DNA of 63,000 bases, the filler included, from Candidatus Hydrogenedentota bacterium (lineage in GTDB: Bacteria > JBFMHD01), in NCBI GenBank assembly GCA_040752395.1. It is 14 parts of 14 records of this genome, joined end to end, with 100 filler letters (N's around TTAATTAATTAA, not from the genome) between each part and the next. Parts side by side here need not be neighbours in the genome. Positions count along the whole stretch, not along the records: positions 1 to 18,111 come from JBFMHD010000026.1; 13 more parts are not named here. One strand, written 5' to 3'. A program made the position numbers and the translations under genes. The notes under the pieces are model-generated. The model was not told the DNA's origin, made no database searches, and worked only from the letters and a program-made list of their open reading frames with translations. Of this stretch, positions 10,431 through 62,071 are shown in pieces. The first letter of the stretch is position 1. Each line of letters opens with the position of its first letter.

Positions 10431-12050
10431 GTGACCTTTTTGAATTATAAAGAATTAATAAAAGAAAAAGAGAGAAGAGAAAATTTTAAAACCACATCAG
10501 GTATAGAACTTGATAGAATCTATCTACCCGATAAAAAATATGATTATCTTTCGAAACTTGGATTTCCAGGTGAGTATCCTTTTACCCGTGGCATACAACC
10601 AACAATGTATCGTGGAAAACTCTGGACAATGAGACAGTATGCAGGTTTCGGGACAGCAAGAGAATCGAATAAACGATATAAATTCCTTTTAGAAACAGGC
10701 CAGACAGGGGTATCTGTTGCATTTGATTTACCCACACAGATTGGTTATGATTCTGACCATCCTTTAAGCAGAGGCGAGGTGGGGAAAGTTGGGGTAGCTA
10801 TAGATTCATTAAATGATATGGAAATTTTATTTGATAATATACCACTTGATAAAGTTTCGACTTCTATGACAATAAATGCGCCGGCTTGTATATTGCTTGC
10901 AATGTATATTTGTGTTGGAAGAAAGCAGGGAGTAGATGAGAAAAAGTTGCAGGGTACCATACAGAACGATATATTAAAAGAGTATATCGCACGTGGTACA
11001 TATATATTTCCACCAAAACCATCAATGAGAATTATAACAGATATTTTTAAATACTCTTCTATTAATTTACCTTTGTTTAATACTATCTCGATCAGTGGTT
11101 ATCATATAAGAGAAGCAGGCTCAAATGCTGTTCAGGAGCTTGCGTTTACAATCGCTAACGGCATAACGTATGTTCAAGCAGCGATTGATGCAGACCTTGA
11201 TGTGGATGATTTTGCCCCGCGTTTATCTTTTTTCTTTAATGCTCATAACAATTTTTTAGAAGAGATAGCTAAATTTAGAGCAGCACGCAGAATCTGGGCT
11301 AAGATTATGAAAGAGAAATTTAAGGCTAAAAAACCGCGTTCGATGATGTTAAGGTTTCATACCCAAACTGCGGGTTCCACACTTACCGCTTCACAGCCTG
11401 ATAATAATATTATACGTATAACACTACAGGCTTTAGCTGCTGTTCTTGGTGGTACGCAGAGTTTACATACCAACTCAAAGGATGAGGCACTCTCATTACC
11501 TACAGAAGAATCAGTTAGAATAGCTTTGAGAACCCAGCAGATAATAGCCTATGAGAGCGGAGTAACTGATACGATTGATCCATTAGCAGGCGCCTATGCT
11601 CTCGAATACCTCACTGATGAAATAGAAAACAGAGTTTTTGAATATCTTAAAAAGATAGATTCAATGGGCGGTATGATAGAAGCTATTAAATCAGGCTATA
11701 TACAATCAGAGATCGCTGAATCTGCATATCGATACCAGAAAAGTATAGAGTCGAATGAGAAAAAAGTTGTTTCTGTGAATATCTTTACTGAAAAAGAAAA
11801 ACAAAAAACAGAAGTTTTAAAAGTCGATGAAAGTATAGAAAGAGAACAGATCAATAATCTAAAAAAGCTAAAAAAGAAACGAGATAATGCTCTTGTTAGA
11901 AACAGATTAAAAGCTCTTGAAAATATCGGCTCAAGTGATAATATAATGCCATTTATTATTGATGCTGTAAGTTCCTATGCTACAATAGGTGAGATATGTG
12001 ATGTTTTAAGAAAAGTTTTTGGAGAATATAAAGAAAGTATCAGGATATAA
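10431..12050 (+). CDS. Methylmalonyl-CoA mutase family, catalytic (large) subunit
   Basis: [42 protein letters not shown] and RFHTQT. Confidence 0.95.
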
Positions 12051-12057
12051 AAGAGAT

Positions 12058-12175
12058 AGGAGTCAACATAGACTTCAGATTGCAGACTACAGGCTCTTCA
12101 GGCTCCAGCCGGCTGTAGTCCGTAGCCTGTAGCCTGTACCCCGAATTATTAAAGTTGCGAAGTTTTTCAAAGGAG
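12058..12175 (+). repeat. Mosaic intergenic repeat copy bounded by AGGAG at both ends
   Basis: AGGAG-tcaac...GGCTCCAGCCGGCTGTAGTCCGTAGCCTGTAGCC...GTTTTTCAAAGGAG. Confidence 0.9.
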
Positions 12176-12180
12176 CTGTT

Positions 12181-12816
12181 ATGAAGAGATTTTGTTCGAT
12201 ACTATTATTAATATTATGTATTAGTTGTGTAGAAGAAGAAACCATAAAAAAAGAAGAGATTGGGCTTGAGAGATTTGTTAGCTATTTAGTTGACAATTAT
12301 AAAAACAGGAATGCCGAGGGTTTCTTAAAAGTTGTATCCCGTGATTTTTGCGGCGGTTTTAATGAATTTGAAAAAGATATAAGAGTGGATTTAGGACGTG
12401 TTGACCAGATTGAGATTGTTTATAATATAGATTCAGTGGAGTATTCTGGAAATGAGACACGATTGGAACTACGATGGCGAAAAAAATATCTTGAACGGAC
12501 TGATAGGGATTTTGATGGTATGCCTGATTTATGGGAGAGATACAATGGTTTAGATGAGAACGACCCGGCTGATGCATATAAAGATACAGATGGTGACGGT
12601 TTTACAAGTAGAGAGGAATTTCTATCTAATTCTGATCCGCTTGACCCAACAAGTGTGCCTGCAGGCACTGTTAATACAATACCTTCTCCTGTTAAACGTG
12701 AGTTTGCAGGGACGTCTTTTTTAATATTAATTAAAGAAGATAATGAGTATCAGCTTATAGCGCAGGAAGGCGATGTATTATTTGGTAATTCTGATAAACT
12801 TGAAGAAGGATTCTAA
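12181..12816 (+). CDS. Putative lipoprotein with Asp-rich (TSP3-like) Ca-binding loops
   Basis: Signal peptide ending CISC; DRDFDGMPDLWE and DTDGDGFTSREEF..SDPLDP. Confidence 0.6.
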   Translation: MKRFCSILLLILCISCVEEETIKKEEIGLERFVSYLVDNYKNRNAEGFLKVVSRDFCGGFNEFEKDIRVDLGRVDQIEIVYNIDSVEYSGNETRLELRWRKKYLERTDRDFDGMPDLWERYNGLDENDPADAYKDTDGDGFTSREEFLSNSDPLDPTSVPAGTVNTIPSPVKREFAGTSFLILIKEDNEYQLIAQEGDVLFGNSDKLEEGF

Positions 12817-12837
12817 AAAGAAGGTTAAATCCAAAAG

Positions 12838-13236
12838 ATGCAAAAGAGAAGAAAGAAGATTGTGATTGCGAAACCCGGATTAGATGGCCATGACCGTGGA
12901 GCAAAGGTCATAGCACGTGCTTTAAGAGACAAAGGTTATGATGTTTTGTATACAGGTATAAGAAAGGCGCCTGAAGAAATAATAAGAATTGTTATAGATG
13001 AAGATGCTGATTGTCTCGGCTTATCTTGTTTATCTGGTGCACATAAAGAATTATTTAAAAGGGTTATGGATATTCTTAAAAAAGAGAGAGTAAAGATACC
13101 AGTATTTGCAGGAGGCATTATACCAGAGGAGGATATAGAATATTTAAAAAGTATAGGTATAAACAGAGTGTTTGGACCAGGAACGAAAACAGATGATATT
13201 ATCTTATATGTGGATAAGTTATGGAAAAAGGCATAA
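12838..13236 (+). CDS. Cobalamin-binding (small) subunit of acyl-CoA mutase
   Basis: KPGLDGHDRGAK (DxHxxG), GLSCLSGAH and GGIIP. Confidence 0.93.
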   Translation: MQKRRKKIVIAKPGLDGHDRGAKVIARALRDKGYDVLYTGIRKAPEEIIRIVIDEDADCLGLSCLSGAHKELFKRVMDILKKERVKIPVFAGGIIPEEDIEYLKSIGINRVFGPGTKTDDIILYVDKLWKKA

Positions 13237-14087
13237 TAAAAAGATTAAAAAAGGGTGACAGAAAAGCGCTTGCAAAAATAATAACAGAGATCGAAAAAGA
13301 TTATAATAAGATACCTGAGATTTTTAAGAATGAAAAGTATGAATACCCTCTTATTTTAGGTATAACAGGGCCACCTGGCTCGGGTAAGAGCACTTTAATT
13401 GGTAAAATAATTAAACATTTAAAAGATATTAAAATAGCGATGTTTTTAATAGACCCATCAAGCAAGCTAAAACGCGGTGCTATTTTAGGTGATAGACTAA
13501 GGATAGAAGAGAAACCAGGGGATACGATTTATATCAGAAGTTTTTCAACAGGTAATACTACAAGCGGCTTATCATTTGTTCTGCCTGCGGTTTCTCGTTT
13601 GGTTAAATTGGCGGGTTATGATTTAATATTTATTGAGACTGTTGGCGCAGGCCAGATAGAAGATATAATATGCGATTTTGCTGATAAAACATATCTTGTA
13701 ATTCAGCCAGCAAGTGGTGATGAAATACAGGCTATTAAATCCGGCATAATCGAGAGAATAGAGGGTATTATTATTAATAAGAGTGATTTGAGTGGCGCTA
13801 TGAGTATGTATAATATTTTTAAAATGATATATAGTGATAAGTTCATTATTAACACAAGTGCAGAAAAAGAAGAAGGTATAGATAAATTTGCTTTGCAGAT
13901 TAGGAATGATTTAAAAGACAGGGTTAAATTAAAGAACAGAAAACAAAGAAAGTTATTTGAATTAAAATTTTATATAAGAGAAATGTTATTCCGCGAGATT
14001 GATAAAAAAATAAACATAAATTTAGTAGAAGACGATACGGATCCTCTAATAACAGCAAAAAAAATCGCCAAACATATGTTGCAGTGA
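13221..14087 (+). CDS. meaB: MeaB/ArgK-family GTPase metallochaperone
   Basis: GPPGSGKST, DPSS...GAILGDR.R, IETVGAGQ and INKSD; located next to mutase genes. Confidence 0.85.
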   Translation: MEKGIIKRLKKGDRKALAKIITEIEKDYNKIPEIFKNEKYEYPLILGITGPPGSGKSTLIGKIIKHLKDIKIAMFLIDPSSKLKRGAILGDRLRIEEKPGDTIYIRSFSTGNTTSGLSFVLPAVSRLVKLAGYDLIFIETVGAGQIEDIICDFADKTYLVIQPASGDEIQAIKSGIIERIEGIIINKSDLSGAMSMYNIFKMIYSDKFIINTSAEKEEGIDKFALQIRNDLKDRVKLKNRKQRKLFELKFYIREMLFREIDKKININLVEDDTDPLITAKKIAKHMLQ

Positions 14088-14088
14088 T

Positions 14089-14116
14089 TAAAGTTAATAT
14101 ATATTTATGTCGAATA
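14089..14116 (+). promoter_or_regulatory. Possible sigma28-type promoter
   Basis: TAAA-N16-GTCGAATA compared with consensus TAAA-N15/16-GCCGATAA. Confidence 0.35.
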
Positions 14117-14261
14117 ATTATATAGTATGTCTGCGATAGTTAAAAAGTTAAAGAGGATACAGGAAAAGCAGGAAAAAGACCTTCTTTGGTTACGGAAATA
14201 CCGCAAAAAAGAAAAATAAATATTAATTGACGAAAAAATAAAATAATGTAGAAATAGAAAA

Positions 14262-14315
14262 ACCTTTCTGCTTGTTATGAAATATGAGCAAGCTGATTGA
14301 ATCCATAGAAAGGAG
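14262..14315 (+). promoter_or_regulatory. Possible rpsF (S6:S18) leader hairpin sequestering the SD
   Basis: CCTTTCT...AGAAAGG outer stem overlaps the SD; GCTTG/CAAGC inner stem; directly upstream of rpsF. Confidence 0.4.
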
Positions 14316-14323
14316 AGACGAAG

Positions 14324-14743
14324 ATGAATTTAAATTCTTATGAGGCAGTCCTGGTATTCCCCATTGATATTACAGATGAGGAAAAAAATAATATTGTTGA
14401 GATTATAAGAAAGAATATAACACCAGCAGGTGGTAATATTACATCTGAAAATACGCTGTATAAAAGGACTCTTACTTACAAAGTAAAAAAGAAACAGGAA
14501 GGGATATATTATCTTATTGAATTTGCATCTGCTGGCGATGCTATATCACAGATTGATTCACAGTTAAGGATACAGGAAAAACTATTAACATTTATCATTG
14601 TGAGGAAAGAAAAACATAAATTAAGAAAGAAACCAAAAGAGCCCAAAAGAACAAAACCAGCTAAAAAGAAGACAGCTAAAAAAGATAGCACAATACCGGC
14701 AAAAGAGGATAGCGGAGAACATATTACAAGTGAAAAAGTGTGA
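14324..14743 (+). CDS. rpsF: 30S ribosomal protein S6 with a Lys-rich C-terminal extension
   Basis: YEAVLVF...RTLTYKVKK..EGIYYLIEF; position in the rpsF-ssb-rpsR order. Confidence 0.88.
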   Translation: MNLNSYEAVLVFPIDITDEEKNNIVEIIRKNITPAGGNITSENTLYKRTLTYKVKKKQEGIYYLIEFASAGDAISQIDSQLRIQEKLLTFIIVRKEKHKLRKKPKEPKRTKPAKKKTAKKDSTIPAKEDSGEHITSEKV

Positions 14744-14760
14744 TCAGGTTTTAGCTGGAG

Positions 14761-14868
14761 AGGAGTTGTCATAAGCACGGTTTGCGCTCTACACTATTGG
14801 GTTATTGGGTTATCTTGCTTCTTGCTTCTTGCTGGGATTATTATACTTACAATGTTTTTCAAGGGAGG
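14761..14868 (+). repeat. Mosaic intergenic repeat copy between rpsF and ssb
   Basis: AGGAG...GCGCTCTACACTATTGGGTTATTGGGTTATCTTGCTTCTTGCTTC...AATGTTTTTCAAGGGAGG. Confidence 0.9.
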
Positions 14869-14874
14869 AAAGTG

Positions 14875-15330
14875 ATGGCAAGGTTAGAATTAAACAGAGT
14901 AATTTTAGCAGGAAATCTTACTTATCCACCAGAATTAAAGTTTACAAAGAGCGGGTTACCAGTTACGACTTTTTCGATCGCGTTAAACAAGACATTTAAA
15001 AATCAGGCAGGCGAGACTAAAAAAAGTACTGATTTTGTTCGCGTTGTTGTCTGGGGGAAAACTGCTGAAAATTGTAAGTCTTATTTAGTAAAGGGGCAGC
15101 AGGTGCTCGTCGAAGGGAGCATTCGCTCAAGACAATGGGAAACCAAAGATGGTAAAAAAGCTTCTACAATTGAAATAGTGGCAAGCAGGGTTCATTTTCT
15201 TGATAAGCCGCGTAGTGATAAACAAGTTGAGATAGCAAAGGATGAGACCAAAGTTGAGGAAGAGGTATTTGCTGATGAAGAGGAGGCAGATATCCTTATA
15301 TCTGAATCTGAAGAAGAGGTCCCATTTTGA
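14875..15330 (+). CDS. ssb: Single-stranded DNA-binding protein
   Basis: LNRVILAGNLT..PELK.T, VWGK.AE, KGQQVLVEG and an acidic tail ending EEVPF; ATG at 14875. Confidence 0.97.
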   Translation: MARLELNRVILAGNLTYPPELKFTKSGLPVTTFSIALNKTFKNQAGETKKSTDFVRVVVWGKTAENCKSYLVKGQQVLVEGSIRSRQWETKDGKKASTIEIVASRVHFLDKPRSDKQVEIAKDETKVEEEVFADEEEADILISESEEEVPF

Positions 15331-15501
15331 AAAACTAAAGATGATATGAAAAGAGTCACAAGTCGCAAGTCGTGAGTCAAAACAGGACTCAAGACTCAAG
15401 ACTTTTCAGCAGGCTCCGGGCTTTTTGCTCCAGCCGGCTGTAGTCCGTAGCCCGTAGCCTGTACCCCGAATTATTAGAGTTACAGCGTTTTTCAGAGGAG
15501 G
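15328..15501 (+). repeat. Mosaic intergenic repeat copy between ssb and rpsR
   Basis: TGAAAAACTAAAGATGATATG, GAGTC/GACTC arms, GGCT/AGCC arms, terminal TTTTTCAGAGGAGG. Confidence 0.95.
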
Positions 15502-15508
15502 ATACCTA

Positions 15509-15727
15509 ATGGCTGTCATAAAAAAGAAAAAGAAGGTCTGTTATTTCTGTAGAGAGGATAAAGAGCCAGATTATAAAGATATTTCTATATTAGAACGTTT
15601 TATATCTGACAGGGGGAGGATTGTACCTCGAAGAATTAATGGTGTCTGTGCAAGACACCAAAGAAAACTCACAAGGGCAGTAAAACGTGCGAGATGTATA
15701 GCCCTGGCTCCATTTACAACAGTATGA
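15509..15727 (+). CDS. rpsR: 30S ribosomal protein S18 (Cys-containing form)
   Basis: CYFC...DYKD...[32 protein letters not shown]. Confidence 0.97.
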
Positions 15728-15830
15728 AGTATATCCACATACCTATGCATAGATGTAGGGGTTTATCCTCATTTCAAGGAGCGTGGCATTAGAGGATGTT
15801 GGGGTAAAACGTTGGCGCAACTGTTCCTTT

Positions 15831-16946
15831 ATGAATAAAACAGGGAATAATACTTATCTTCTAAAAAATGTATTGATTGGATTAAGATATAATATTTATT
15901 TACCTGTTTTTGCTTATATTATTTATCTTATATTTGTAGAAAGTGGTATCAGACATTTAAATAATGACTTATCACTTGAGAGTATTAATAAGATAGAGGT
16001 AATTTCGTTTTTAAGGATTGTTCAGATTTTTTATGGATTATTCCTATTTTTTATAGGAATGTGTCTTTCTATTGTAGGTTTTACATTATTTCGGATAAAG
16101 ACCAGCAGGAATATTTATTTAATCACGCTTATCATAATATCTTTTATACTTTTTTATCAAACATCTTTTTCTTCAGCCCTGGTTTTTATTTTGTTTATAC
16201 CTGTTATATCTTCTGTTATTGTTTATGGTATTAGAAAAAAGATGAGCTTTTTCAAGATATTCGCTCTTTTATTGCTGTCTTCTTCTGGTATAAGCACAAT
16301 TATCTTTATTTTGATATTTTTACTATTAAATGACTTACCCTTTATATATAAGGTCAACTATGATATTATTGAATCTAATAAAAATATAATAGAATTTTAT
16401 TTAAAGGGTGAGAATACAGGATTAAGTGATGAGCTAAAAGAAGATGTGAGGGTCTCATTACAGAGGTATATAAGAGATTCCACTATACTTATACCGCGGA
16501 ATACTATAATTTTTACATCTTTTATAATTTTTATGAGTTTGTATATAATAAGAATTATATTATTTAGATTTAAGTTAAGGGTAATACCAGGGACAGGAGA
16601 CATATCTTATATCAATTTACCTGAAGTTTTTGGCTGGTTTTACATCGCGGGTTGGTTATTATTTTTTACAGGATTTTATACCAGAAATCTTTTTATTGAG
16701 GCTCTGGGTCTCAACTTACGTGATATACTTGAATATTTTTTCTGGTTTCAAGGTTTAGGGGTTGCATATTTTTATTTTACAAAGTGGGGTGTTAAGAATA
16801 AATTTATTTTGACATTATTGTTTATTCTGTCAGGCTATATAATTTATAAAGCCCATATAGGACCTTTTGATGTATTTCTTGATTTTAGAAAGATAAGGTC
16901 GTTACCAGGGGAAAAAGATAAATTTAAAGATGAGAATAATTATTGA
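15831..16946 (+). CDS. Membrane protein, DUF2232/YybS-like
   Basis: Multi-TM, FQGLGV motif, C-terminal DVFLDFRK; usual position between rpsR and rplI. Confidence 0.65.
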   Translation: MNKTGNNTYLLKNVLIGLRYNIYLPVFAYIIYLIFVESGIRHLNNDLSLESINKIEVISFLRIVQIFYGLFLFFIGMCLSIVGFTLFRIKTSRNIYLITLIIISFILFYQTSFSSALVFILFIPVISSVIVYGIRKKMSFFKIFALLLLSSSGISTIIFILIFLLLNDLPFIYKVNYDIIESNKNIIEFYLKGENTGLSDELKEDVRVSLQRYIRDSTILIPRNTIIFTSFIIFMSLYIIRIILFRFKLRVIPGTGDISYINLPEVFGWFYIAGWLLFFTGFYTRNLFIEALGLNLRDILEYFFWFQGLGVAYFYFTKWGVKNKFILTLLFILSGYIIYKAHIGPFDVFLDFRKIRSLPGEKDKFKDENNY

Positions 16947-17004
16947 CTATAAAAAACTGAATTATAAAATTATAGAAGGTACAAAATTTTTTTATATGGG
17001 TTTT

Positions 17005-17246
17005 ATGAGCGTGGTTTGCGCTCTACACTATTGGGTTCTTGGGTTCTTGCGTTTTTGCGCTCTACACAAAGGATGAAAAACTAAAGATGATATAAAAAGA
17101 GTCGTGAGTCACAAGTCGCAAGTCGTGAGTCAAAACAGGACTCAAGACTCAAGACTTTTCAGCAGGCTTTTGGCTTTTGGCTCCAGCCGGCTGTAGTCCG
17201 TAGCCTGTAGCCCAAATTATTAGGGTTGCGAAGTTTTTCAGAGGAG
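17005..17246 (+). repeat. Mosaic intergenic repeat copy upstream of rplI
   Basis: Full module series ending GTTGCGAAGTTTTTCAGAGGAG. Confidence 0.95.
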
Positions 17247-17255
17247 ATGACTTGA

Positions 17256-17813
17256 ATGCAGGTTCTGCTAATTAAAGATTATTCTAATTTAGGGAGAGCT
17301 GGTGAAAGTTTGAAAGTGAAAGACGGGTATGCAAGAAATTTTCTCATACCAAGAAAAATAGCTGTTCCAGCTACAAAATCAAACATTAGAAAATATGAAG
17401 CTTTTATTAAAAAGATGGAAAAGATAAGGCAAAAAGAGATAAAGAGTTCAGAGGATTTAAAAACAAGGTTAGAGGGAATGAAGTTGTATTTTAAGGAGAA
17501 GGCTTCAGAAGAAGGGAGATTATTCGGGTCTGTAGGTGTGGCGCAGGTTGTTAGCCGCCTGAAAGAAGAGGGTATTGAACTCGATAAATATCAGGTTATA
17601 ATACCTGTTCATATAAAAGAAGCAGGTACGTATGCAGCAAGGATACGGCTTTATCATAATATCGAAGCCAATATCGAGATTGTTGTTGAAACAGAAAAAG
17701 AAGAAGCACCGCCTGAAGAACTTGCCTTTAAGCCAGAAACACCACAGATAAAAGAAGAACCACAACAACCTAAAGTTGATGATATGCAAAAGTATGAAAA
17801 AGATAGGAGTTAG
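17256..17813 (+). CDS. rplI: 50S ribosomal protein L9 with a C-terminal extension
   Basis: MQVLLIKD..NLG..GE...VKDGYARNFLIP and GRLFGSV. Confidence 0.97.
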   Translation: MQVLLIKDYSNLGRAGESLKVKDGYARNFLIPRKIAVPATKSNIRKYEAFIKKMEKIRQKEIKSSEDLKTRLEGMKLYFKEKASEEGRLFGSVGVAQVVSRLKEEGIELDKYQVIIPVHIKEAGTYAARIRLYHNIEANIEIVVETEKEEAPPEELAFKPETPQIKEEPQQPKVDDMQKYEKDRS

Positions 17814-18111
17814 GAGTTCGTAATAATAGATACGAGCTCCGAGCTCCGAACTCCGAACTTTTTCGAAGGAGTCAACATGAGCGCGGGTTGCGCTCTACAC
17901 TATTGGGTTCTTGGGTTATTGCGTTTTTGCGCTCTACACAACGTATGAAAAACTGAAGATGATATGAAAAGAGTCGTGAGTCAAAACAGGACTCGAGACT
18001 CAAGACTCAAGACTCAAGACTTTTCAGCAGGCTTTTGGCTTTTTGCTCCAGCCGGCTGTAGTCCGTAGCCTGTAGCCTGTAGCCCGTCCTGACACCTCTC
18101 ACTTCTTCCGT
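17793..18111 (+). repeat. Mosaic intergenic repeat copy, truncated by contig end
   Basis: GGAGTT/AACTCC arms, GAAGGAG-tcaacATGAGCGCG module, GAGTC/GACTC arms, GGCT/AGCC arms. Confidence 0.95.
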
Positions 18112-25149: not shown

Positions 25150-25250
25150 NNNNNNNNNNNNNNNNNNNNNNNNNNNNNNNNNNNNNNNNNNNNTTAATTA
25201 ATTAANNNNNNNNNNNNNNNNNNNNNNNNNNNNNNNNNNNNNNNNNNNNG

Positions 25251-25292
25251 GGTAGATTCGTTAAAAGAAAACCATTTGGTGAAATAAGATAA
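25251..25292 (+). CDS. 3' end of a gene, possibly dihydropyrimidinase
   Basis: GRFVKRKPFGEIR* resembles a hydantoinase C-terminus; aminotransferase and ssnA nearby; only 13 codons visible. Confidence 0.35.
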   Translation, partial: GRFVKRKPFGEIR

Positions 25293-25302
25293 GATTTCTT
25301 CG

Positions 25303-25573
25303 AAAGATTGAAAGATTCAAAGATTCAAAGGAAAGGCACAGAGGCACAAAGGCACAAAGGCACAAAGTATGAAAAGAGTCGTGAGTCGCAAGTCGTGAGT
25401 CAAAACAGGACTCAAGACTCAAGACTCAAGACTTTTCAGCAGGCTTTTGGCTTTTTGCTCCAGCCGGCTGTAGTCCGTAGCCTGTAGCCTGTCCTGATAC
25501 CTCTCACTTCTTCCGTTATCTTGCTTCTTGCTTCTACTTGATATTATTATAATTACAATGTTTTTCAGAGGAG
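25303..25573 (+). repeat. Mosaic intergenic repeat copy
   Basis: GATTCAAA and GGCACAAA 8-mers, then GAGTC/GACTC, GGCT/AGCC and CTTCTTG modules, terminal TTTTTCAGAGGAG. Confidence 0.95.
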
Positions 25574-25581
25574 TTTAAAAA

Positions 25582-26904
25582 ATGAATGAAAAATATTTGA
25601 CAGAAGAACAGATTCTACAGATGAGAGAAGAATATTTATTACCCTGTGTGATGAAGTATTTTTCCAAACCCCTACACATTGTAAGAGGAGAGATGCAGTA
25701 TGTTTATGATGTAGATGGCAAAAGATATCTCGATGCTTTTAGTGCCGTAGTGACTATTAGCGTGGGGTACTGTCATCCTGATGTGATAAAAAAGACTATA
25801 GAACAGAATCAAAAACTTCAACATATAACTACACTTTATCTTACAGAATCTGTTGTTAAATACGCAAAAAAATTACATAAAAAAGCTCCACCTTCATTAA
25901 AAAGATGTTTCTTTACTAATTCAGGAACCGAAGCAAATGAGATGGCTGCAATGCTTGCTAAAAATTATACCAAATCACAGGAATTTATTGCACTCCAACA
26001 TTCTTTTCACGGTCGAACACTGATGTCTATGTCTTTTACAGGTCAATCTATCTGGCGACATAGTTTACCATATGTTTTTGGTGTGACTCAGGCACCTGCT
26101 GCTTATTGTTATAGGTGTCCATTCAAGACAACGTATCCACGATGCGGTTGCGCCTGCGCTGAATATATTGAAGATATTATTAAATACAACACCTCAGGCA
26201 GGATCGCTGGTTTTATTCATGAACCTATCCACGGCTTTGGCGGAGTTATAGAACCTCCAAAAGAATATTTTAAAATAGCTTATGATATTATTAAAAAGTA
26301 TGGTGGAATTAATATCTCTGATGAGGTACAGACAGGGTTTGGGAGAACTGGTAGAAAATTTTTTGGGATCGAAAACTGGGGTGTGGTACCTGATATAATT
26401 ACTATGGCTAAAGGTATGGGAAACGGCATCCCTATTGGCGGTGTTATAGCTTCGGATGAAGTCGCTGAAGCGATACGCGGTAAAATACATTTTTCAACTT
26501 ATGGTGGTAACCCTGTATCCATGGTTCAGGGGCTTGAGGTGATAAATGTTATTGAGAGATACAAATATCAGGAAAACATAGAAAGGCTCGGTAAATTTTT
26601 AAAATCTCAATTCAAAAGATTAATGGATAAACATCCTATAATTGGGGATGTTCGTGGGTTTGGGTTTATGCTCGGTATAGAACTTGTAAAGAATCGAAAG
26701 ACCAAAGAGCCTGCAGCTGAAGAGCTCCTTTTTGTGATGGAGCTTTGCAAAGACAGGGGGCTTTTCATAGGTAAAGGAGCTATGGCAGGGAATGTTATTC
26801 GAATCAAACCACCATTCTGTATAACCAAACAAGATGCGGAATTTATTGTTAATACACTTGACGAAACCCTGAAAATAGCTGAGAAAAAATACAATATTAA
26901 ATAA
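25582..26904 (+). CDS. Class III PLP aminotransferase (AGXT2-like)
   Basis: NSGTEANE, SFHGRT, DEVQTGFGRTG, TMAKGMGNG and STYGGNP. Confidence 0.92.
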   Translation: MNEKYLTEEQILQMREEYLLPCVMKYFSKPLHIVRGEMQYVYDVDGKRYLDAFSAVVTISVGYCHPDVIKKTIEQNQKLQHITTLYLTESVVKYAKKLHKKAPPSLKRCFFTNSGTEANEMAAMLAKNYTKSQEFIALQHSFHGRTLMSMSFTGQSIWRHSLPYVFGVTQAPAAYCYRCPFKTTYPRCGCACAEYIEDIIKYNTSGRIAGFIHEPIHGFGGVIEPPKEYFKIAYDIIKKYGGINISDEVQTGFGRTGRKFFGIENWGVVPDIITMAKGMGNGIPIGGVIASDEVAEAIRGKIHFSTYGGNPVSMVQGLEVINVIERYKYQENIERLGKFLKSQFKRLMDKHPIIGDVRGFGFMLGIELVKNRKTKEPAAEELLFVMELCKDRGLFIGKGAMAGNVIRIKPPFCITKQDAEFIVNTLDETLKIAEKKYNIK

Positions 26905-32250: not shown

Positions 32251-32510
32251 GCAAGATAACGGAAAGAAAGATAACGAAAGAGGCAAGAAGCAAGAGGCAA
32301 GAAAACGTCTGAATCTGGTTTTTCAGGCTTTGTGTAGCGGTGCAACGCACCGCATGATGACTCCTCTGAAAAACATTGTAACTATAATAATTCGGGCTAC
32401 AGGCTACGGACTACAGCCGTCTGGAGCCAAAAGCCCAAAGCCTGAAGCCAACATATCATCTTTAGTTTTTCATACTTTGTGCCTTTGTGCCTCTGTGCCT
32501 CTTGCTTCTA
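32251..32510 (-). repeat. Mosaic repeat copy overlapping the 3' end of a membrane-protein gene
   Basis: GGCACAAA arms, GGCT/AGCC arms, internal TTTTTCAGAGGAG-tcatcATG, GCGGTGC/GCACCGC hairpin. Confidence 0.9.
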
Positions 32511-33805: not shown

Positions 33806-34138
33806 AGAAAGATAACGAAAGAAGCAAGAAGTAGTGAGGGTCTTTAGACCCGTAGTAGACTGAGGGGATATCAAGAAGCAAGAAGCAAGATAACGGAAGA
33901 AGTGAGAGGTGTCAGGACGGGCTACAGGCTACGGGCTACGGACTACAGCCAGCTGGAGCCAAAAGCCCAGAGCCTGAAGCCAACATATCATCCTTAGTTT
34001 TTCATATATTGTGTAGAGCGCAAACCGCGCTCATGAGTACTCCTCGGAAAAAGTTCGGAGTTCGGAGCTCGGAGCTCGTATCTATTATTACGAACTCCTA
34101 ACTCCTATCTTTCCCCTACTTTGTGCCTTTGTGCCTTT
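33806..34138 (-). repeat. Mosaic repeat copy
   Basis: GGCACAAA, GGAGTT/AACTCC, GAGCGC hairpin, GGCT/AGCC and CTTCTTG modules. Confidence 0.93.
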
Positions 34139-40881: not shown

Positions 40882-40884
40882 TAG

Positions 40885-41239
40885 GTAGAAGCAAGAAACA
40901 AGATGCAAGAGGCAAGATATTGTTTCTTATCAGAGGAGTACTCAAGAGCGCGGTTTGCGCTCTACACTATTGGGTTATTGCGTTCTCGCACTCTACACAA
41001 CGTATGAAAAACCAGATGTTTGTTTATCTTGCTTGCCTCTTGCTTCTACTTGATATTATTATAGTTACAATGTTTTTCAGAGGAGTCAACATGAGCGCGT
41101 TTGCGCTCTACACAATATATGAAAAACTAAAGATGATATGTTGGCTTCAGGCTCCGGGCTTCGGGCTCCAGCCGGCTGTAGTCCGTAGCCTGTAGCCTGT
41201 AGCCCAAATTATTAGGGTTGCGAAGTTTTTCAGAGGAGG
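40885..41239 (+). repeat. Composite (nested and tandem) mosaic repeat copy
   Basis: GTAGAAGCAAGA...TCTTGCTTCTAC IR enclosing another module; three CAGAGGAG junctions. Confidence 0.95.
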
Positions 41240-49733: not shown

Positions 49734-49822
49734 GAACGTGTGAAATAATCAACATTAATACCTGCTAACTTTTTTATTATCAGTCCCCATTTTCTAAAAA
49801 AGTCTAATTTTTTCACACGTTC
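49734..49822. mobile_element. 89-bp MITE with IS1182-like ends
   Basis: IR GAACGTGTGAAA/TTTCACACGTTC; TGA direct repeats; interior similar to 53172-53240. Confidence 0.75.
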
Positions 49823-49947
49823 TGAGGGAATACAGAAGTATCAAATTTTTCCTTGACCTCCTCCTTTATTTTCTTTATCTTATGCTTAACTATAACAAAT
49901 CAAGTTTTCCAGGGGTTAGGAGTAAGGGGTTAAGGGAGGGATCCAAG

Positions 49948-52964: not shown

Positions 52965-53240
52965 TTATGTTTCTACCTTTAAACGGGGCTGGCAGTTTGC
53001 TTGAGATTGACGAGCAGTTACGGTTACCATGGGTACAGAAATATTTTGGTGGTAGAGTATCAGATACGCATATGGTGCGAGTATTAAGTGGGCTCAAAGC
53101 CAATGGGATTCGTGGTATGAATTACCGGATGTGTATAGCAGGCAATTACACCTATCAACTTGGGAATAAACATTAATACCGAGCAACTCTTTTATTATCA
53201 GCCCCTGTTTTCTGAAAAAGTCTAATTTTTTCACACCTTC
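52965..53240 (+). mobile_element. Degenerate IS remnant (transposase-like fragment plus right end)
   Basis: SLLEIDEQLR...SDTHMVRVL resembles DDE transposase N-terminal regions; ends TTTCACACCTTC-TGA-GGGAATAC like the MITE at 49734. Confidence 0.55.
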
Positions 53241-53250
53241 TGAGGGAATA

Positions 53251-61456: not shown

Positions 61457-61561
61457 GTAACTATTTAGTTATAGTTAGAAGCAAGAAACAAGATAACGAA
61501 AGAAGTGAGAAGTAAAAAAAGGAAATATCACAGTATATCACTAAAAGTATGTAGAAATGAA

Positions 61562-62071
61562 ATGAGTGAAATTAAATTTATCGTTGATGCGATGATGGGC
61601 CGGACTGCCCGCTTGTTAAGAGTCATCGGGATTGATACCCTCTTTTATCCTGAAATAGATGATGCGCGGCTTTTAGCTATCGCAAAGAAAGAAAACAGAA
61701 TAATCATTACCCGAGATACCGCATTTCTAATAAGAAAAAATCTGCCACCTTACTATTATGTTAAAGCCAATGAAACAAAAGACCAGTTCAAAGAGATTGT
61801 AAAATATTTCAATATAAAGTTTCAAAAAGATAATATTTTCACAAGATGTATTGTCTGTAATGGCAGCATAGATACAATTAATAAAGACAGAATAAAAGAT
61901 AAAGTACCTGAATATACATATCAAACAATAGATATATTTTACAAATGCAACGGCTGTGGAAAAATCTACTGGCAGGGTTCACACTATTCTAAAGCCATAG
62001 ATTTTATTGAGGGTCTCTTCAATGAATCAACAACCAGACCCAACCATACACCGTCTCCTCCTCCTTTTTGA
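61562..62071 (+). CDS. Mut7-C RNase domain protein
   Basis: FIVDAMMGRTARLLR.IG.DT, RIIITRD, TRC..CN and C..CGKIYWQGSH. Confidence 0.88.
   Translation: MSEIKFIVDAMMGRTARLLRVIGIDTLFYPEIDDARLLAIAKKENRIIITRDTAFLIRKNLPPYYYVKANETKDQFKEIVKYFNIKFQKDNIFTRCIVCNGSIDTINKDRIKDKVPEYTYQTIDIFYKCNGCGKIYWQGSHYSKAIDFIEGLFNESTTRPNHTPSPPPF

Follow-up and report, generated by a model that had tools for sequence, protein, structure and literature searches.

The part of a ribosomal-protein operon lying within positions 15328-18111 of a 63-kb stretch of DNA from a Candidatus Hydrogenedentota bacterium (hereafter the window, meaning the whole stretch analyzed) carries in its spacers tandem runs of 7- or 8-nt units paired with runs of the reverse-complementary units. 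Here we describe these periodic inverted arms and relate them to compact cassettes in other bacterial genomes, where such arms enclose a single small gene, encoding either a four-helix-bundle protein (TIGR02436) of the type found in 23S rRNA intervening sequences (IVSs) or a GxxExxY protein (TIGR04256). Our preferred reading, which we consider about evenly balanced between right and wrong, is that the arms in the window are cargo-less members of this cassette family, transcribed through, cut by RNase III and drifting in arm length by slippage. The window arms are empty; that they were emptied is suggested by filled and empty states of orthologous sites in other genomes.

Periodic arms and ordered mosaics in the window

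Tandem Repeats Finder returns 137 rows for the whole window, of which 63 have period 7, 29 period 8, 2 period 6 and 9 period 9. After merging, these give 87 distinct period-7/8 arrays, compared with a mean of 5.05 and a maximum of 9 over 20 random sequences from a first-order Markov model. Seventy of the 87 arrays lie outside the map of open reading frames (ORFs) (18.5% of bases), and many have a reverse-complement partner array. The window thus contains tandem 7-nt units that are intergenic and above chance, as in heptamer simple sequence repeats of the short tandemly repeated repetitive (STRR) kind. A preliminary description of 15328-18111 had claimed 7/8-nt arms paired with reverse-complement arms, and this is confirmed both by the excess of arrays and by three hairpins, H1, H2 and H3, found in this region (Table 1). 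The genes concerned, rpsF-ssb-rpsR-DUF2232-rplI, form a core operon with arrays filling its spacers, not an accessory array.

The arrays belong to an ordered mosaic. It starts with a Shine-Dalgarno (SD)-like box, an ATG, a small GC hairpin, the motif CTACAC, 8-mers and a second CTACAC box, continues with a conserved linker, H1, H2 and an optional module ending in (TCTTGCT)n, and closes with TTTTTCAGAGGAGG, which is the ribosome-binding site of the downstream gene. Strand-specific markers of the mosaic form 16 clusters in the window, each on a single strand, and all flanking ORFs on the same contig as a cluster (21/21) lie on the strand of that cluster. The hosts are housekeeping genes, including, beyond the operon, those for methylmalonyl-CoA mutase, CTP synthase, S1 and malate dehydrogenase. 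Since all 16 places keep the same linkers outside the repeats and the same module order, the mosaics have been copied whole rather than grown in place. A full mosaic copy (25250-25650) contains no promoter-like and no terminator-like site, and a check of 11900-18111 for promoters and terminators gave nothing consistent.

Folding of the RNA was compared with 200 dinucleotide shuffles (z-scores in Table 1; whole spacers, -3.17, -1.14 and -4.86). Pairing of the arms, for which shuffled controls had been proposed as the check, is clearly above the shuffles for H1 and H3 and weaker for H2, where it holds in the better copies only. Inverted-repeat stems of the kind expected of an IVS-type element are therefore present in H1, H3, the better copies of H2 and an outer AGAAGCA/TCTTGCT stem that encloses a small-hairpin module. 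The stability of H2 over 12 copies ranges from -16.9 to -41.6 kcal/mol. As previously described, the number of units varies between copies: in eight copies of H1 the left/right counts are 4/3, 5/3, 2/5, 4/4, 4/5, 4/4, 2/2 and 4/4. The counts of the two arms are uncorrelated (r ∼0.03), and equal arm length is not maintained. The left arm of H3 overlaps the rplI stop codon.

The small hairpin with CTACAC is found in 14 copies across the window, on the strand of the element, and the copy at 32330-32365 has an altered stem sequence with the pairing retained. A 23-residue peptide (MSAGCALHYW...) was considered as a coded product of this module and rejected: the copies at 40935 and 14769 lack the ATG, short forms read differently, and the copy at 32330-32365 alters the peptide yet keeps the stem. 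The 23-codon frame is probably incidental.

Table 1. Features of the ribosomal-protein operon, its spacers and related modules in the window
Feature	Position	Strand	Description	Fold z-score
rpsF	14324-14743			
rpsF-ssb spacer	14744..14874	+	just 5' of the 15328-18111 stretch	
Decayed small-hairpin module	~14769-14794	+	in rpsF-ssb spacer, without ATG	
(TATTGGGT)x2	14795-14810	+	in rpsF-ssb spacer	
(TCTTGCT)x3	14813-14833	+	in rpsF-ssb spacer	
SD box	14855-14867	+	in rpsF-ssb spacer	
ssb	14875-15330			
Conserved linker (AAAACTAAAGATGATATGAAAA)	15331..15352	+	upstream of H1 in most mosaic copies	
H1 copy 1	15353..15406	+	four GAGTCnn/AAGTCnn units, 7-nt loop, three GACTCAA/GACTT units	-4.18
H2 copy 1	15412..15467	+	GGCTnnn units, central palindrome CAGCCGGCTG, GTAGCCn units	-2.89
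Mosaic 3' box	15468..15508	+	terminates in TTTTTCAGAGGAGG, the rpsR ribosome-binding site	
rpsR	15509-15727			
DUF2232 membrane protein	15783-16946			
Mosaic start	17005..17076	+	small GC hairpin, CTACAC, three 8-nt units (17029-17052), second GCGCTCTACAC	-0.70
TATTGGGT-type 8-mers	17029-17052 and 17901-17924			
H1 copy 2	17099..17159	+	5 left, 3 right units	-2.32
H2 copy 2	17165..17213	+		-1.79
Mosaic 3' box	17214..17255	+	with rplI ribosome-binding site	
rplI	17256-17813			
H3	17803..17860	+	GGAGTTn x2, AT loop, CGAGCTC/CGAACTC x4	-5.67
Mosaic start	17859..17947	+	SD box, ATG, small hairpin, CTACAC, 8-nt units (17901-17924), second CTACAC box	-1.56
H1 copy 3	17971..18024	+	2 left, 5 right units	-2.14
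H2 copy 3	18030..18085	+		-0.72
GTCCTGA..CTTCTTCCGT module	18086..18111	+	start only, at contig end (N linker from 18112); full copies run on into (TCTTGCT)n and an SD box	
Second H3 copy	~34055-34107	minus		
Nested module	40882..41085	+	outer (AGAAGCA)n and (TCTTGCT)n, 15-bp stem enclosing small-hairpin module; 0/200 shuffles as stable	-3.39
Other alphabets	elsewhere in window		AGAAGCA/TCTTGCT, GGCACAAA/TTTGTGCC, GATTCAAA, TACTTCT, AAAACCGG	

The window is a pseudomolecule with a G+C content of 34%. Past base 18111 its contigs are ∼3.4 kb long, slowly decreasing in length, and 13 linkers (N44-TTAATTAATTAA-N44, 18112-59757) join the window contigs. Seven of 26 contig ends in the window fall within the marked mosaic, as would follow from a dispersed repeat interrupting the assembly. 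An identical 117-nt block is present in reverse complement at two contig ends (52701-52864 and 59541-59657), probably reflecting overlapping contigs or a repeat at both ends. A search of the whole window with Rfam at the gathering level yields one tRNA and no rRNA, and at E up to 1 the stretch 14700-18111 gives only two snoRNA-like matches, judged to be chance.

Several other features of the window were recorded. Between the genes for the catalytic and B12-binding subunits of methylmalonyl-CoA mutase lies a 211-aa ORF (12181-12816) with an H2-type element upstream; it has only weak below-cut-off matches, to the bacterial TSP3 repeat and an Amuc_1099-family pilus-like protein, and could be an inserted gene. 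A separate ∼64-nt repeat (…TTATTATCAG.CCC..TTTTCT.AAAAAGTCTAATTTTTTCACAC.TTCTGAGGGAATA), without 7/8-nt periodicity, occurs at ∼49782-49845 and 53183-53250, adjoining a sensor-kinase gene and the gene for a 929-aa F5/8-type-C protein. A gene for a Mut7-C RNase-domain protein (61505-62071) lies downstream of a nucleoside transporter gene.

Cargo genes and cassette turnover in other genomes

No close relative of the window organism is present among the 120 genomes searched (S18, 45-59% identical; CTP synthase, 44-58%), and a 23-mer spanning a mosaic junction gave 0 stretches in metagenome contigs. A 17-mer mosaic pattern was also matched against genome contigs, and among the 12 matches listed, 11 look like chance and one is real. 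The latter is a 2.2-kb contig of an unclassified metagenome-assembled genome (MAG), the first 100 bases of which differ from window positions 41100-41200 at one position, with the mosaic copy lying upstream of a different gene than in the window. This MAG served as the center for whole-genome searches, and its phylum is represented here by 25 genomes. Arrays of four (GA[GC]TCnn) units, the H1 type, are present in 11/25 genomes of the phylum compared with 4/95 outside it, while the reversed control pattern is found in 0/25 and 3/95, respectively.

The preliminary description had pointed out that similar arms flank TIGR02436 and GxxExxY genes, and this link holds in the 25-genome phylum and in three genomes outside it. 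TIGR02436 four-helix-bundle genes are present in 22/25 genomes of the phylum (1 to 38 matches each), compared with 1/14 well-known control genomes, and GxxExxY genes above the cut-off in 19/25 (up to 75 matches), compared with 0/14. In Pfam, the TIGR02436 family corresponds to 23S_rRNA_IVP (PF05635, with a weak bAvd-like match) and GxxExxY to PDDEXK_3 (PF13366).

We examined 29 of 30 fetched four-helix-bundle loci, one on a 717-bp contig being dropped. Counts of shared 5-mers against shuffles fail for low-complexity arms, so a cross-locus control was used. Repeated inverted 5-mers are common to both 200-nt flanks in 24/29 loci, compared with 110/812 cross-locus pairs, and a strong periodic run is present on both sides in 15 of the 29, compared with 5/194 background windows. 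One locus, (AAGTCGT)x9 ... four-helix-bundle gene ... (GACTTAC)x5, has the alphabet and polarity of H1 in the window. Further arm pairs around four-helix-bundle genes are GGGATTG/TCCCTAA, AAGACTA/GTCTTTA and TTAGTGG/CTAACCA, and arrays of 16 to 26 units also occur. The GxxExxY loci are flanked by arms of period 8 or 9 nt resembling terminal inverted repeats (e.g. TTCACCGCAGAGACGCAGAG ... CTCTGCGTCTCTGCGGTGAA). Outside the phylum, all five four-helix-bundle loci in the three genomes lie between heptamer arrays, four of them clearly inverted.

Taking both families together (45 loci, 29 + 16; L090-L093 omitted as weak or without listed places), runs of equal period are present on both flanks in 32/45 loci, and the consensus units are complementary in 30 of these 32. 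In 17 of the 30 complementary pairs the units pair at every position, and the mismatch between arm units in the window is 1 to 3 nt; the regularly spaced 2-nt mismatches that had been put forward as the conserved property are thus not a constant of the arms. The period follows the cargo, being 7 nt in 17/21 four-helix-bundle pairs and in 0/11 GxxExxY pairs, of which six are 8 nt and five 9 nt (Fisher p 1e-5, with copies partly kin). The G-richer arm is upstream of the cargo in 21/30 pairs, the two arms are equal in 7, and the order is opposite in 2; judged by eye against the direction of the flanking genes, H1, H2, H3 and AGAAGCA/TCTTGCT of the window likewise have the G-rich arm upstream. Cargo and neighboring genes share a strand in 44/49 and 26/29 cases (crude ORF calls).

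Two side observations concern the arms. Units of the upstream arm often resemble ribosome-binding sites (GGAG, GAGG), and in the 21/30 pairs with the G-rich arm upstream the downstream arm is the C-rich one. In two genomes (G019 and G014), short runs of 7-/8-nt units (GACTCAA, CCAGAACA, TTCTGGTGC and others) seemingly lie, by eye, within a long membrane-protein ORF (L039 6480-6870, L040 5380-5560, L041 3080-3280, L042 1840-2050 and L043 2370-2440); the run lengths would preserve the frame and, if so, arrays would be tolerated in coding loops too.

Turnover of cassettes is seen most directly in the spacer before a flagellar rod gene (MMRSLW...), which in five genomes contains two filled, one decayed and two empty cassettes, all in different alphabets. 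G006 has (AAGTCGT)9, a four-helix-bundle gene and (GACTTAC)5. G004, the upstream gene of which is 98% identical to that of G006, has a decayed GxxExxY-type element. G005 has (TTAAAAA)n, another four-helix-bundle gene and (TTTTTAA)n, and G003 and G002 have gene-less hairpins in two further alphabets. In 5/5 genomes the insert takes up the whole gap separating the stop codon and the ribosome-binding site that follows. At a second locus, the flanks in G006 and G004 are 90-93% identical and the arms and four-helix-bundle genes differ, having been replaced together as one block; the exact limits of homology are the ribosome-binding site at one edge and the end of the neighboring gene at the other. 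Because one orthologous site is filled in some genomes and empty in others, and whole cassettes are swapped between close genomes, the earlier phrase "stacked empty cassette sites" is a fair one.

A GxxExxY element of G006 recurs in G004 in copies of 95-97% identity. High-copy deletion derivatives retaining only the ends of the element are found in at least 17 places, where the matched left end measures ∼107-243 nt and the matched right end 52-90 nt of the query; the two ends lie up to ∼115 nt apart (two pairs abut), on the same contig and strand. In its near-identical copies and end-only derivatives this GxxExxY element resembles miniature inverted-repeat transposable elements (MITEs); the window has multi-copy mosaics without a coding parent. 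The best GxxExxY copies from five genomes are 81-87% identical, compared with 61-78% for S18 in 8/10 genome pairs (61-66% in the compared pairs). Such patterns mark arms and cargo together as a unit that is mobile or can at least be exchanged. As a side observation, the higher conservation of GxxExxY than of S18 (L074-L084 compared with L098-L111) hints at transfer between lineages.

Proposed mechanism and alternative explanations

In our preferred reading, a cassette is bounded by two inverted arms, each a tandem run of 6-9-nt units, and when filled carries one small gene, for a 23S-rRNA-IVS-type four-helix-bundle protein (TIGR02436/PF05635) or a GxxExxY PD-(D/E)XK nuclease (TIGR04256/PF13366). 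It occupies the interval from the stop codon of the upstream operon gene to the next ribosome-binding site, on the coding strand, and stacking or nesting of cassettes would produce the mosaic of 15328-18111. In the first step, transcription of the operon would run through the cassette, as suggested by the lack of promoter-like and terminator-like sites in a full copy. In the second step, the arms would form an imperfect stem in the RNA, which in the third step would be cleaved by the double-strand-specific RNase III, as in the rRNA intervening sequence. The flanking cistrons would remain expressed, so that the insert would be tolerated and harmless in essential operons. In the fourth step, slippage would shift the number of units of each arm independently. 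Transcription of the arms with the operon, their folding and their cutting by RNase III are proposed from published precedent together with the anatomy, namely the sense strand, the position between stop codon and ribosome-binding site and the lack of a promoter or terminator. Cassettes would also have moved between sites, and the arms in the window would once have enclosed a gene.

Several observations weigh against this reading. A six-frame search of the 63-kb window with hidden Markov models (HMMs) built from proteins of the relatives gave no four-helix-bundle or GxxExxY gene or remnant (best E 0.96); filled sites, proposed as a check on the cassette idea, are found in other genomes and not in the window. 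None of the genomes with filled cassettes is closely related to the window organism, and the sole contig sharing the window's mosaic may be mis-binned, because the phylum of its MAG is likewise not close kin. At the RNA level, wobble-type mismatches in the consensus units of the arms number 8 sense and 8 antisense, giving no sense-strand signal, and H1 is equally stable folded from either strand. The sense strand of H2 is more stable in 12/12 copies, which are kin of one another. The unmatched arm lengths leave effective stems of 11-19 bp with internal loops, and one H2 copy is no more stable than shuffles (z -0.72). Co-orientation could reflect the need of the cargo for host transcription, inherited by empty copies. 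In 39 window ORFs scanned (∼17 were left unscanned), no recombinase, integrase or transposase family was matched. For the structure-recognizing enzyme that had been suggested, the candidates are RNase III, for which there is published precedent, and the PD-(D/E)XK cargo.

A bolder explanation, which we hold to be possible but less likely than not, is that periodic-arm cassettes make up a distinct class of compact mobile element whose homing target is the interval separating a stop codon from the following ribosome-binding site. Arm period would then be dictated by the encoded protein, at 7 nt with the pentameric four-helix bundle and 8-9 nt with PD-(D/E)XK, whether because the protein binds each unit of the arms or because its own cycle of cutting and repair generates them. 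As to how cassettes move, the PD-(D/E)XK cargo and the relation between period and cargo suggest that the cargo protein acts at the level of DNA.

It is unlikely, in our estimate, that the hairpins primarily serve the host as regulators like repetitive extragenic palindromic (REP) sequences, bacterial interspersed mosaic elements (BIMEs) or the pneumococcal BOX, setting the stability or translation of cistrons, with the number of units as a knob for tuning or phase variation. The small hairpin with CTACAC presumably resembles a REP-type palindrome. The sense-strand location in operon spacers, ending in the ribosome-binding site of the next gene, and the different unit counts among copies agree with regulation, as does the Haemophilus influenzae hmw system, in which, as far as the account in PMC12721329 goes, heptamer number, a hairpin cut by RNase III and expression level are tied together. 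However, the downstream genes share no function, and what occupies orthologous spacers in related genomes is arms in wholly different alphabets, a selfish gene, or an insert of far smaller size, a pattern better explained by turnover of inserts than by a conserved regulator. The RNA step of the regulatory explanation overlaps with that of our preferred reading.

Rather improbable is a role of the arms as sites of recombination or cleavage in DNA, where they would extrude as hairpins or cruciforms for an integron-like recombinase or for the PD-(D/E)XK cargo nuclease, leaving empty sites as excision scars or landing pads. Replacement of cassette by cassette at fixed boundaries, a predicted nuclease as one of the two cargoes, the near-identical dispersed copies with their end-only derivatives, the 81-87% identity of GxxExxY proteins where S18 reaches only 61-66%, and the tracking of cargo family by arm period (17/21 compared with 0/11 at period 7, copies partly kin) would all suit such a role. 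Against it stand the lack of a recombinase or transposase match in the 39 ORFs scanned and the four-helix-bundle family, for which we know of no catalytic activity. Replacement could also arise if, after transfer, the flanking genes recombined homologously, an exchange through the flanks that could also operate in our preferred reading.

Least probable, and in our view a poor candidate, is the idea that the arrays are plain slippage microsatellites, akin to the heptamers of cyanobacteria, Xanthomonas and Beggiatoaceae, unconnected with cassettes and with partner arrays arising from small palindromes that expand on both sides: intergenic heptamer excess is reported as widespread in parts of two papers (PMC4692102, PMC4679880), changes are of whole units with arms varying independently and the window has no cargo gene, but this explanation does not account for linkers and module order kept over 16 places, the strict strand rule (21/21) or the arm pairs elsewhere that enclose specific gene families and are swapped along with them.

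Relation to known elements and implications

The closest parallel is the 23S rRNA IVS of Leptospira, Coxiella and relatives of Xanthomonas, which likewise has an inverted-repeat stem around an ORF of the same four-helix-bundle family (S23p/PF05635) and is tolerated through removal at the RNA level, as we propose for the cassettes. In the Coxiella IVS, as described in sections of PMC4990558, the S23p ORF lies between inverted repeats, the 5' part consists of two or three tandem heptamers, the count depending on the strain, and the site of RNase III cleavage is the first heptamer repeat. Unlike the IVS, the cassettes lie in mRNA spacers between protein genes rather than in 23S/16S rRNA helices, their arms are long multi-unit arrays in many alphabets, GxxExxY provides a second cargo family, and the window copies lack any ORF. 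We rate the elements as IVS-like ones that sit in spacers of mRNA and that add a second cargo family as well as empty, stacked derivatives.

Other systems share single features with the cassettes. In the 5'-UTR (untranslated region) of H. influenzae hmw1A, a heptamer-repeat hairpin is cut by RNase III, and a change in repeat number requires transcription, the hairpin and RNase III, according to part of PMC12721329. There too the heptamer run is one arm of a long hairpin; in contrast to the cassettes, it is a single locus in which one repeat arm faces a G-rich arm and serves phase variation of an adhesin, and it is not dispersed, stacked or cargo-bearing. Intergenic heptamers include the STRR of heterocystous cyanobacteria, GGGAATC of Xanthomonas and TAACTGA of Beggiatoaceae, Cyanobacteria and Bacteroidetes (PMC4679880, PMC4692102). 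In the portions of these papers that describe them, they are often placed immediately ahead of start codons and within operons for ribosomal proteins, some of them are paired in inverted orientation, and contigs break there. Unlike the cassettes, they mostly have one alphabet each, and those same portions make no connection with cassette turnover or with four-helix-bundle or PD-(D/E)XK genes lying inside the repeats (PMC4679880, PMC4692102).

Small co-oriented promoterless cassettes with imperfect inverted repeats and strain differences at the same place are also known from integrons and their attC sites. In contrast, the elements described here are scattered singly in core operons, without an array beside an integrase (none in the 39 ORFs scanned), and their arms are tandem repeats, not attC core sites. 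REP/BIME, BOX and MITEs are likewise high-copy intergenic mosaics of small palindromes with variable internal units, co-transcribed with genes, and the end-only GxxExxY derivatives resemble MITEs derived from a coding parent. They differ in having no sequence relation to the cassettes, the arms of which are periodic arrays, and no RAYT or transposase was found in the 39 window ORFs scanned.

Previous mentions of the cargo families are brief where we have met them: four-helix-bundle genes are noted, without explanation, wedged between cas genes in a passage of PMC3936711, and a section of one survey lists PDDEXK_3 as of unknown function (PMC3424549). Full-text searches of the literature, exclusive of database family notes and paper supplements, yielded no paper linking periodic inverted arms to TIGR02436 or GxxExxY or describing turnover of cassettes in operon spacers.

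To our knowledge, intergenic heptamer repeats have been known since 1990 and never explained, and the functions of the S23p ORF, TIGR02436 and GxxExxY are likewise unexplained. Heptamer repeats, rRNA intervening sequences and the two protein families, treated apart so far, are here tied into one anatomy, in which a gene-sized loop between inverted periodic arms is inserted sense-wise in operon spacers, swapped as a block and decays to empty hairpins. If our preferred reading is true, the function of both protein families becomes testable, as binding or cutting of their own arms, the shattered draft assemblies of such organisms are explained, and the cassettes provide a natural system for carrying foreign genes in essential operons without polar damage. 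If instead the cassettes form a distinct class of mobile element, that one class would have left its footprints both in the heptamer repeats found between genes in many bacteria and in the intervening sequences of rRNA.

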